A model generated the notes under the pieces. It was not told the origin of the DNA. It saw only the letters and a list, made by a program, of their open reading frames with translations, and searched no databases. A DNA stretch of 64,000 nt, from assembly GCA_049322675.1 (NCBI GenBank), contig JBMORM010000014.1:15896-79895 (forward strand), given 5' to 3'. The translations under genes and the position numbers were made by a program. Below are positions 29,619-31,358 of this stretch, in pieces; position 1 is the stretch's first letter, and each line of letters begins with the position of its first letter. The stretch comes from Patescibacteria group bacterium (GTDB taxonomy: Bacteria > Patescibacteriota > JAHJAL01).

Positions 29619-31358
29619 ATGAAATCCAAAACCTGCCACCAATGCCATTCCAATTTCACCGTCACCGACGACGACCTGACATTTTACCAAAAAATGACAG
29701 TCCCGCCCCCCACTTGGTGCCCGGACTGTCGAGCCATTCGCCGCATGCAGTGGCGTAACGAAAGGAGTCTTTATTGCCGGAAATGTGACGCCACTGGAGT
29801 TGATATTGTTTCCTGTTTCGCTCCGGAAAAAAAATTAATTGTTTATGATCAAAAATATTGGTGGTCAGATGCCTGGGATCCGTTAACCTACGGTCAGGAT
29901 TATGATTTCAGCCAACCATTCTTTGGGCAATGGCGTGAACTTTTGCACAGAGTCCCGCAACTATCTGTCTCCAATGCCAATGCTGAAAATTCCGAATATT
30001 GCAACGTCAACAGTCACTCCAAGGACTGTTATCTGATTTCTGCCTCATTTCAAAATGAGCGAGTGATGTACACCAATCGAGTAGTGGGATGTCATGATTG
30101 TCTCGACAACTACATTCTCAACCAAAGCCAATATTGCTACGACAATATCGCTTGTACCAACTGCTATCAAGTCTTTTACAGTCAAGACAGCAATAACTGT
30201 CGTGAATCATATTTCCTTTACAACTGTCACCAATGCCAAAATTGTTTGGGTTGTATCAATCTTCGTAACAAACAATATTGCATTTTTAACCAGCAGTGCA
30301 CCAAAGAAGAGTATGAACAACAAATAAAACAACTCAATCTATCCAGTCGACAAAGTTTGAATCAAATCGAAGAAAAATTTTCCGTTATCAAATCCCAATC
30401 TATTCGCAAATTTGCCAATTTAATTAATTGCGAAAACTGTACTGGCGACAACCTGACCAATTGTAAAAATTGTAAAAATTGTTTTGATTTAGGCGACAAT
30501 GTTCAAAACTGCAATTATTCGGTTTGGGGCGGTTATGATTTAGACGGAGCGTTTGACACTGGTCCTGGCGTTGGTTCCAAATCCAGCCTGATTTATGAAG
30601 CCTATGACAGTGGTATCAATTCAACCAACCTAGCCTTCACTGGCGTCGTCTATGATTCTTTCCAGGTTCGTTATTCTATTTTCTGTTTCAACTGCCAAAA
30701 TATTTTTGGTTGCATAGGTTTGCGTCATAAAGAATATTGCATCTTAAACAAACAATATACCAAAGAAGAGTACGAACAACTTCTACCCAAAATCATTGCT
30801 CAAATGAATACCCTGCCTTATATCGATCGCCTCGGCCGTCAGTATGACTATGGCGAATTTTTTCCGCCCGAAATTTCCCCTTTTGCCTACAACGAAACCG
30901 TCGCTCAGGAATACTACCCTACCACCAAAGAATTGGCTATCCAGCAAGGTTTCAGCTGGCGTGATCCCGATCCCAAACAATTTCAACCCACCATTCTTCA
31001 TCAAAATATTCCCGATAGTATTATTGGTCTTGACGAAAAAATCCTCTCGGCAGTTTTTGAGTGTTCTCATCAGGGACATTGCGACGAACAATGTAACCAA
31101 GTTTTCAAAATCCTCCCCGCCGAATTAGCTTTCTATCTAAAAAATAACATCCCCCTTCCTCATCTTTGTCCCAACTGCCGCCACTACCAACGCATCAAAA
31201 AAAGAAACCCCCTAAAACTCTACCCCCGCCAATGTATGTGCGAAGAACCCAACCACACTCACGAAACCCGCTGCCCCAACCAATTCGCCACCACCTACTC
31301 GCCAGACCGACCAGAAAAGGTGTATTGTGAAGAGTGTTATCAGAAAAGCGTAATATAA
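29619..31358 (+). CDS. cysteine-rich protein (about 60 Cys) with zinc-ribbon-like ends and an internal duplication; function unknown
   Basis: 579 aa; N-terminal CHQCHSNF..WCPDCRAIRRMQWRNERSLYCRKC; duplicated unit NCxxCxNCxGCIxLRxKxYCIxNxQ(Y/C)TKEEYEQ at about residues 200-230 and 352-385; C-terminal LCPNCRHYQR...CPNQF...YCEECY. Confidence 0.7.
   Translation: MKSKTCHQCHSNFTVTDDDLTFYQKMTVPPPTWCPDCRAIRRMQWRNERSLYCRKCDATGVDIVSCFAPEKKLIVYDQKYWWSDAWDPLTYGQDYDFSQPFFGQWRELLHRVPQLSVSNANAENSEYCNVNSHSKDCYLISASFQNERVMYTNRVVGCHDCLDNYILNQSQYCYDNIACTNCYQVFYSQDSNNCRESYFLYNCHQCQNCLGCINLRNKQYCIFNQQCTKEEYEQQIKQLNLSSRQSLNQIEEKFSVIKSQSIRKFANLINCENCTGDNLTNCKNCKNCFDLGDNVQNCNYSVWGGYDLDGAFDTGPGVGSKSSLIYEAYDSGINSTNLAFTGVVYDSFQVRYSIFCFNCQNIFGCIGLRHKEYCILNKQYTKEEYEQLLPKIIAQMNTLPYIDRLGRQYDYGEFFPPEISPFAYNETVAQEYYPTTKELAIQQGFSWRDPDPKQFQPTILHQNIPDSIIGLDEKILSAVFECSHQGHCDEQCNQVFKILPAELAFYLKNNIPLPHLCPNCRHYQRIKKRNPLKLYPRQCMCEEPNHTHETRCPNQFATTYSPDRPEKVYCEECYQKSVI

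Follow-up and report, generated by a model that had tools for sequence, protein, structure and literature searches.

Within a 64,000-nucleotide stretch of DNA from a Patescibacteria group bacterium (assembly GCA_049322675.1, contig JBMORM010000014.1, positions 15,896 to 79,895 of the forward strand; hereafter the window), we studied a cysteine-rich open reading frame (ORF) at 29619-31358 on the plus strand. It starts with ATG and encodes 579 amino acids (aa) followed by a stop codon. As a first-pass annotation made from the sequence had stated, it lies between a transposase gene of the IS110 family and an adenylate kinase gene (adkA), and both its coordinates and its neighbours were confirmed. 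The product is a cytoplasmic protein built of five modules in the order Z-R-R-X-Z'. A search for frame or translation errors revealed none, and all 47 of the alignment columns conserved in at least 93% of 175 family members hold the consensus residue in the window protein.

The same annotation had described the protein as rich in cysteine, with about 60 of these residues. The richness is real but the count is lower, as the translation contains 41 cysteines. This corresponds to 7.1% of the residues, which is about 9 times the median of the window (0.77%) and nearly 3 times the value for its next-richest ORF (2.6%). The N-terminal and C-terminal cysteine blocks quoted in the annotation were both found in the translation. 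Neither a transmembrane segment nor a signal peptide was predicted for the protein, which is acidic overall (isoelectric point, pI, 5.9; family median 6.2). The ORF is an intact, native gene for a cytoplasmic protein.

The internal duplication pointed out earlier was also recovered: aa 202-238 align with aa 355-391 at a local score of 132, whereas shuffled sequences averaged 26.6 (z = 18.8). It is visible at the nucleotide level as well, with 76% identity over 98 nucleotides (30224-30321 versus 30683-30780, repeat family D8). Additionally, a second duplication, implicit in the earlier description, relates aa 7-56 to aa 490-539 (z = 18.0). Both duplications are larger than had been reported and span whole domains. 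In profile-profile comparisons (hhalign), which like the cysteine conservation given below were based on 175 family members, aa 128-240 aligned with aa 276-392 at a probability of 100% (E = 3.7e-38) and aa 6-84 aligned with aa 482-579 at a probability of 99.6% (E = 1e-24). The order of the modules is pseudo-palindromic: Z, core repeat 1, core repeat 2, an acidic linker X and Z'.

The N-terminal Z-module (29619-29870, plus strand; aa 1-84) carries a predicted treble-clef zinc site formed by C6, C9, C34 and C37. The site is followed by the basic stretch CRxxRRxxxRNERxLYxRxC and then by a degenerate second site, in which VYDQKYW replaces VYCEECY. Two zinc sites, C482/C492/C517/C520 and C539/C552/C570/C573, are predicted in the C-terminal Z'-module (31062-31355, plus strand; aa 482-579). 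The Z-modules are the mildly basic parts of the protein, with pI values of 7.6 and 8.1. The AlphaFold2 model, built from a 71-sequence alignment, reached a predicted template modelling score (pTM) of 0.86 and a mean predicted local distance difference test score (pLDDT) of 82.9, with values of 86-97 in Z, X and Z'. In this model the N-terminal module consists of strands 2-5 and 12-15 and helices 17-25 and 35-44. The second cysteine pair of each terminal site is located at the N-terminus of a helix (helix 35-44 starts from C34-C37; the other pairs are C517/C520 and C570/C573), which is a signature of treble clefs.

About 18 cysteines are conserved in at least 82% of the family, and they group as four-cysteine sites of the treble-clef type. 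Conservation is 95-99% for C482 and C539/C552/C570/C573, 95-97% for C6/C9/C34/C37 and 96-97% for C209 and C365; it is 82-88% for C492/C517/C520 and C203/C206/C212/C374. We infer that each monomer has at least three zinc sites, of which Z would contribute one and Z' two. An Hsp33-like arrangement, CxC-x(27-32)-CxxC, can be read from C539-x-C541 and C570-xx-C573 and was rejected, as C541 is 64% conserved and C552 98%, and the HSP33 model was not matched. The likelier ligand is C552 rather than C541.

Three models of treble-clef zinc fingers resemble the terminal modules: PF13451 (zf_Tbcl), PF23477 (zf_Tbcl_2) and TIGR04272. The likeness consists of two CxxC pairs, of which the second lies where a helix begins. 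A scan with the full-length protein did not match PF13451, and in a scan of the N-terminal domain alone, aa 4-43 scored 23.6 bits (E = 5.2e-5) against a cut-off of 24. The two pairs demanded by this model are present in that module (C6/C9 and C34/C37), the second at a helix start, and 32 of the 71 homologues matched it at E <= 1. The zf_Tbcl_2 model gave 15 bits (E = 0.02, cut-off 27) with the C-terminal segment of the window protein and matched 8 of the 71 homologues at their C-terminal extremity. TIGR04272 (cut-off 36 bits) had no match in the window protein in the NCBIfam scan. It is worth stressing that these models cover about 40 of the 579 residues with scores at or below threshold, whereas the core of about 400 aa is unmodelled and the extended Z-module (FYxK...CPxCRxxRR...RNxxxLYxRxC...VYCExCY) lies outside them.

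The middle of the protein is of a different nature. Core repeat 1 (30000-30338, plus strand; aa 128-240) is rich in beta bridges, contains a ladder of cysteines and serines, and ends with CxNCxNCxGCxNLRNKxYCIFNxQxxKEEY plus a helix. Core repeat 2 (30444-30794, plus strand; aa 276-392) is its diverged copy, which keeps C356, C365 and C374. Most central cysteines are swapped for serine in a large fraction of family members. Such frequent exchange suggests a structural Cys/Ser ladder rather than metal ligands, so the central cysteines look structural. A structure prediction had been proposed to look for tandem zinc-ribbon or treble-clef repeats; modules of this kind are predicted at the termini, and a middle made of tandem zinc ribbons is not supported. 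Between the core and Z' lies linker domain X (30804-31058, plus strand; aa 396-480), an acidic alpha/beta domain (pI 4.4) with conserved G412, P416, Y424 and N425. No relatives of it were detected, nor any similarity to the other modules of the protein.

With cysteine at 7.1% and a CxxCxxCxxC run at aa 203-212, the protein might be thought to act in redox reactions, to bind iron-sulfur clusters or to buffer metal, its cysteines holding clusters or storing metal ions. This is very improbable. The run lacks the CP that would follow it and is missing from core repeat 2, the central cysteines are often serines, and the approximately 18 conserved ones form the four-cysteine sites described above. 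Moreover, the Fer4 and radical-SAM models of Pfam were matched neither by the window protein nor by the 71 homologues, and the same was true of DnaJ_CXXCXGXG, HSP33 and zf-DNL.

Searches for a known family or structure gave little beyond the fingers. Nothing in Pfam or NCBIfam exceeded threshold for the window protein, and the 71 homologues yielded only sub-threshold matches to treble clefs. Searches of the PDB with phmmer and with a profile returned 0 matches at E <= 10. Foldseek found nothing below E = 4 when the AlphaFold2 model was compared with the PDB and only zinc-ribbon matches of 36-63 residues in BFVD. The defence models of PADLOC assigned 0 families to the window protein and produced three single-member matches, at chance level, among the 71 homologues. 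The central repeats have a weak but recurrent likeness to two PHROGs of unassigned function: phrog_9336 matched 19 of the 71 members (best E = 5e-5) and phrog_15341 matched 13 (best E = 1.7e-5, aligned to aa 123-299). For the window protein itself these matches are sub-significant (E = 0.0017), and neither the 50,697 phage genomes searched with tblastn nor the IMG/VR contigs yielded a relative.

We found no description of the family, or of the dnaK operon presented below, in the searchable literature. The first-pass annotation was therefore right that the protein has no known function or family, and sensitive profile searches of the kind it proposed cover only the terminal fingers, not the core. 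The fingers are of a known kind; the core fold and the operon partnership are new within the tools and the searchable literature used.

The family is very large. A word-indexed search returned more than 7,587 full-length homologues. Among the matches listed, the proteins are 575-610 aa long, share 47-68% identity with end-to-end coverage, are all labelled hypothetical, carry no Pfam domain and come without exception from metagenome-assembled genomes of Patescibacteria; for 120 listed homologues the coverage of the window protein was 99-100% at 47-68% identity. An exhaustive hidden Markov model search of 1.84 billion representatives recovered 4,890, 3,681 and 2,171 clusters (50% identity) at E <= 1e-3, 1e-10 and 1e-30, respectively. 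The hosts named among species-representative genomes are Nomura-, Giovannoni-, Staskawicz-, Lipton-, Wolfe-, Niyogi- and Sungbacteria, Paceibacterota and Minisyncoccia. Only two labels fall outside the candidate phyla radiation (CPR), both on contigs of about 2 kb that are probably mis-binned. The family appears to be confined to Paceibacteria-type CPR bacteria. Of the earlier suggestion, the lineage-specific character was borne out, and metal binding is very probable.

Many genomes carry several copies. Two to six were present in 51 of 88 loci, mostly in tandem. Clustering of the paralogues with the unweighted pair group method with arithmetic mean gave no clean orthogroups, probably due to biased sampling, and we used a comparison of identities within and between loci instead. 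In this test 134 of 138 copies were nearer to a copy from another genome (median identity 60%) than to the copies at their own locus (median 44%). We conclude that the paralogues form orthogroups of ancient origin. Greater identity between genomes than within a locus argues against mobile or fast-evolving genes and for a functional specialisation that has been kept for long.

To describe the genomic context of the family, we used 85 independent loci from genomes and 80 from metagenomes (about 165 in total). In the genome loci, neighbours within three genes were clustered in an unbiased manner. The dominant neighbour was a P-loop ATPase resembling TrwB, VirD4 and HerA, that is, similar to the type IV coupling proteins (T4CPs). 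It was found in 30 of the 85 loci, mostly adjacent to the family gene and co-directional with it (binomial P ~7e-21 if, as a rough assumption, 2 in every 800 genes encode such an ATPase). Genes for DnaJ, DnaK and GrpE followed, with 9, 8 and 4 loci.

A reciprocal search of metagenomes, started from the shorter of two such ATPases, revealed a family member in 67 of 80 loci and in 44 of the 48 loci of at least 10 kb; dnaJ lay directly 3' of the short ATPase gene in 68 of 70 cases. The canonical order is grpE, cutA (optional), dnaK, a long T4CP-like ATPase, zero to five cysteine-rich genes, an optional pair formed by DUF5674 and a 96-aa gene, the short T4CP-like ATPase and dnaJ. The genes are co-directional, with median intergenic gaps of 10-70 bp. 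The optional pair, a DUF5674 protein of about 100-118 aa and an unannotated ORF of 96 aa, stands between the cysteine-rich genes and the short ATPase, its stop and start codons overlapping or abutting (median gap 0). It was seen at loci L004 (7844-8434) and L051 (7114-7764) and in many of the loci L090-L169. A CutA1 gene also recurs nearby, as does a gene pair: one product has about 450 aa and hydrophobic segments at its N-terminus, the other 172 aa.

No dnaK, dnaJ, grpE or T4CP-like ATPase gene was found in the 64-kb window. Among the metagenome operon loci, the nearest relatives of the window protein are encoded within the operon or immediately 3' of dnaJ, which indicates that its orthogroup belongs to the dnaK-ATPase-dnaJ module. 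The window copy is a dispersed solo member, relocated to the spacer between secY and adkA. Homologues were also found in other settings, such as mreB/frr, argS/ileS, tilS and uvrC/spoU, with one following uvrABC; the closest homologue among the matches listed (68% identity) is placed between pyk and tilS-ftsH. We hold with high confidence that the window protein is a member of an uncharacterised paralogous family that is associated with this operon.

The long ATPase has about 650-750 aa and the short one about 485-520 aa. They match TrwB_AAD_bind, T4SS-DNA_transf, TraG-D_C and FtsK_SpoIIIE, and weakly CedD, a DNA-translocating ATPase. The relationship to conjugative T4CPs is remote, with scores of about 50 bits where the equivalog models require 250-650, and TrwB was the only match in the PDB, via the P-loop only. 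No transmembrane segments were predicted in the long or the short ATPase, unlike in the membrane-anchored canonical coupling proteins. Directly after its motor domain, the long ATPase carries a CxxC-x17-CxxC finger that scores above cut-off with zf_Tbcl_2 (46-56 bits) and TIGR04272 (47.8 bits). In hhalign comparisons, it is the second half of the Z-module with which this finger aligns (probability of 85.7% for the N-terminal and 32.7% for the C-terminal module). The short ATPase has a mean column identity of 77% and pairwise identities of 62-92% to the first sequence (alignment A2, 19 loci; for example locus L021, 9840-11378). Its conservation is at the level of core housekeeping proteins across Paceibacteria, yet it has no close solved structure.

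In 2,918 Patescibacteria genomes, a recent survey reported 5,713 VirD4-like T4CP homologues, of which only 148 lay near virB4 (PMC12102498, Microb Genom 2025). Its authors wrote that an exaptation of these proteins "cannot be ruled out", and it makes no mention of cysteine-rich, zinc or DnaK neighbours (PMC12102498). The ATPases described here are presumably part of this set. The likeness to the orphan T4CPs of the survey (PMC12102498) belongs to the flanking ATPases and not to the cysteine-rich protein. These ATPases have no N-terminal membrane anchor, score far below the equivalog cut-offs and are encoded inside a dnaK operon.

Taken together, the gene order, the shared finger and the predicted zinc sites suggest a composite role, to which we give about an even chance: the cysteine-rich protein would be a zinc-stabilised adaptor or substrate-recognition partner that works with the two T4CP-like ATPases and with Hsp70, and that comes from a dnaK-operon family. 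Taken alone, a role as an adaptor in proteostasis is a tentative proposal. In such a scheme the protein, stabilised by at least three zinc ions per monomer, would serve as the adaptor of two ATPases of the hexameric-motor type. The terminal fingers, whose subtype is shared with the long ATPase, could mediate docking to a partner or a ligand, and the repeat core, which has diverged among paralogues, may give client specificity. The module, together with DnaK, DnaJ and GrpE, would then perform remodelling or handover of proteins or nucleoproteins. A bolder version, which we put forward as a speculative possibility, is that the paralogues are client-selecting subunits of a CPR-specific, Hsp70-coupled machine with two exapted, soluble, hexameric T4CP-like ATPases.

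Cys4-zinc modules that are coupled genetically or functionally to Hsp70 are known from the zinc-finger-like region of DnaJ (CXXCXGXG), Hsp33 and Hep1/Zim17. The comparison with them is an analogy only: the cysteine-rich family is co-operonic with dnaK, dnaJ and grpE, but no sequence similarity was detected, and the family differs from them in the spacing of its motifs, in size and in the architecture of its repeats.

Several observations weigh against the adaptor proposal. About 55 of the 85 genome loci, as well as the window copy, have neither an ATPase nor dnaK/dnaJ nearby, which means that the protein may act alone as well. Some operons have no cysteine-rich gene between the two ATPases, and the functional link to the ATPases comes from gene neighbourhood only. 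A CIRCE/HrcA operator (at most 3 mismatches) was found neither in the window nor in 169 loci, which leaves heat-shock co-regulation unsupported. The model confidence of the central repeats is only moderate (pLDDT 57-80; 57-73 in core repeat 1). Finally, DNA translocation is the activity for which the FtsK/HerA/TrwB superfamily is most widely known, and this favours a reading in terms of nucleic acids.

According to that reading, the protein would be a nucleic-acid-binding zinc-finger factor that loads or targets the ATPases as DNA or RNA translocases, in DNA uptake, segregation, repair or RNA remodelling, and the adjacency of dnaK and dnaJ would reflect no more than the packing of operons in a tiny genome. 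Zinc ribbons often bind nucleic acids, and the Z-modules, with their basic pI and CRxxRRxxxRN motifs, would suit such a function, as would the matches of the ATPases to TrwB_AAD_bind, T4SS-DNA_transf, FtsK_SpoIIIE and, weakly, CedD. The homologue that follows uvrABC can be counted here too. The protein as a whole is acidic, however, like the family at its median, and beyond the generic fingers it shows no similarity to DNA- or RNA-binding domains. Furthermore, the great majority of the short-ATPase loci are tied to grpE-dnaK...dnaJ and not to genes of DNA metabolism. We consider this reading unlikely, although it is the main rival of the adaptor proposal.

Another conceivable explanation is that the paralogues are translocated clients or effectors, recruited by the ATPases to a secretion channel, for example in the interaction of an epibiont with its host. 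T4CPs do recruit protein substrates (PMC12102498), and tandem arrays of diverged paralogues look like effector repertoires. Such a function fits poorly with ATPases that have no membrane anchor and with Patescibacteria T4CP homologues that are mostly located away from virB4. The paralogues are ancient orthogroups that evolve slowly, not fast-evolving arrays; the protein has no signal peptide or transmembrane segment, and folded proteins with several zinc ions are poor secretion substrates. We regard it as improbable.

A large part of bacterial diversity falls within the CPR, or Patescibacteria, and many proteins of their small proteomes lack annotation. A family of 4,890 clusters for which no record was found in Pfam, NCBIfam, the PDB or the literature is among the larger annotation blind spots. 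The dnaK-dnaJ operon with its two soluble ATPases gives the family a concrete context and, at the same time, provides a defined setting for many orphan T4CPs. It also bears on a published question, namely the role of thousands of Patescibacteria VirD4-like ATPases located away from virB4. If the Hsp70-coupled motor system proposed here is real, it would be a way, specific to this lineage, in which ultra-small cells manage proteostasis or hand over substrates. If the client-selecting machine exists, it would be a new class of cytoplasmic remodelling or translocation system and would account for orphan T4CPs that are not linked to type IV secretion systems.

The position of the window copy in a ribosomal gene cluster, next to an insertion sequence (IS), is incidental. 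Upstream lies secY (26832-28106, plus strand), identified with PF00344 SecY on an identical Logan contig, followed by a terminator-like hairpin and a run of seven T at about 28133-28166, read directly from the sequence. Then comes the DEDD transposase of the IS110 family (28553-29542, plus strand; PF01548 DEDD_Tnp_IS110 and PF02371 Transposase_20, NF033542 188 bits), the true start of which is probably the ATG at 28580. A gap of 76 bp separates it from the cysteine-rich ORF, and 206 bp separate the latter from the archaeal-type, AdkA-like adenylate kinase gene (31565-32146, plus strand; AAA_17, and NF003122 PRK04040 with 153 bits where the cut-off is 155). Models of bacterial Adk gave about 20 bits with this gene. 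Downstream of it are map, infA, rpsM, rpsK, rpsD and rpoA.

This location had led to the suggestion that the protein is a ribosome- or translation-associated metal-binding factor, native to the spc/alpha cluster. In the window a family gene stands between secY and adkA/map, a position also seen, in another order, at locus L014, and some homologues adjoin argS/ileS, tilS, frr or spoU. The link to translation was not borne out, as only these two of about 165 loci have a family gene in the gap between secY and map; the closest homologue among the matches listed lies near pyk and tilS/ftsH, and the only context with statistical enrichment is the dnaK operon with its ATPases. The proposed check of synteny after secY in related genomes failed for the same reason. 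We find this explanation extremely improbable. At L014 (4723-10519) the order is secY, adk (minus strand), adk, a pyrH-like gene, the family gene and map, with adk of the bacterial type and no IS. There the family gene overlaps the start of map, and a T4CP-like ATPase of 921 aa is encoded two genes further downstream. It may be that additional genes have repeatedly inserted at the junction between secY and map in the ribosomal clusters of CPR bacteria.

The other suggestion was that the gene arrived as cargo of the IS110 element. The transposase is close by, and the arrangement of secY, IS110 and ORF was repeated on an independent Logan contig. On the other hand, no IS110 was found near any homologue in 88 loci, and no passengers are known from IS110 elements. 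The interval between secY and the ORF (28107-29618) measures 1,512 bp, which is the size of one simple, single-ORF IS110. The composition of the ORF resembles that of the window (GC 42.2%, GC at third codon positions 44.4%, codon-usage distance 0.098 with a window median of 0.134), whereas the transposase has lower values than its neighbours (34.8% and 32.8%). Such a native composition, along with the genome's own heptamer palindrome at the 3' end described below, argues that the cysteine-rich gene is embedded as a resident. The idea of a passenger gene is scarcely credible, and the IS110, rather than carrying the cysteine-rich gene, is a simple insertion of its own between that gene and secY.

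An exact-product look-up for a second IS110 copy returned the same locus only, so the ends of the element were placed only approximately, and no IS-free allele of the junction between secY and the ORF was found. The 5' leader of the element, which measures about 330 nt (28230-28560), shows significant structure (z = -4.0). This structure fits the expectation for a non-coding RNA of the bridge-RNA type; when 28000-31700 was compared with Rfam, neither a bridge RNA nor any other RNA was matched. A GC-rich hairpin, GGGCAGGTCACGACCTGCCC, follows the transposase stop codon at about 29557-29577.

The spacer between the cysteine-rich gene and adkA contains a heptamer-repeat palindrome, (TTTCCAA)n...(TTGGAAA)n, at 31358-31527 (no strand assigned). 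It has a perfect stem of 30 bp and a folding energy of -70.6 kcal/mol (z = -10.2). In the window, 31 matches of the heptamer element were observed against 0.04 expected, among others around rpsN, map, rpsM and rpsK. The sites are 2429-2556, 12041-12061, 23834-23861, 31360-31523, 32152-32204, 33594-33687, 34101-34196, 49814-49855 and 62815-62842. Copies of (TTGRAAA)3-4 stand just 5' of gene starts and copies of the reverse complement, (TTTCCAA)3-4, just 3' of stop codons; they often form inverted pairs separated by about 100 nt. The elements could be terminators, RNA-processing sites or punctuation of ribosomal operons resembling miniature inverted-repeat transposable elements.

The repeats also affect gene calling. 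The longest-ORF call for map (32183-33070, 295 aa) starts within a heptamer palindrome (MSNFQFSMDAIRLEIVSWKF...), and the true start is probably an internal Met near "MSLFNNPTLDQKY". The same start artefact lengthens several ORFs located next to the heptamer repeats.

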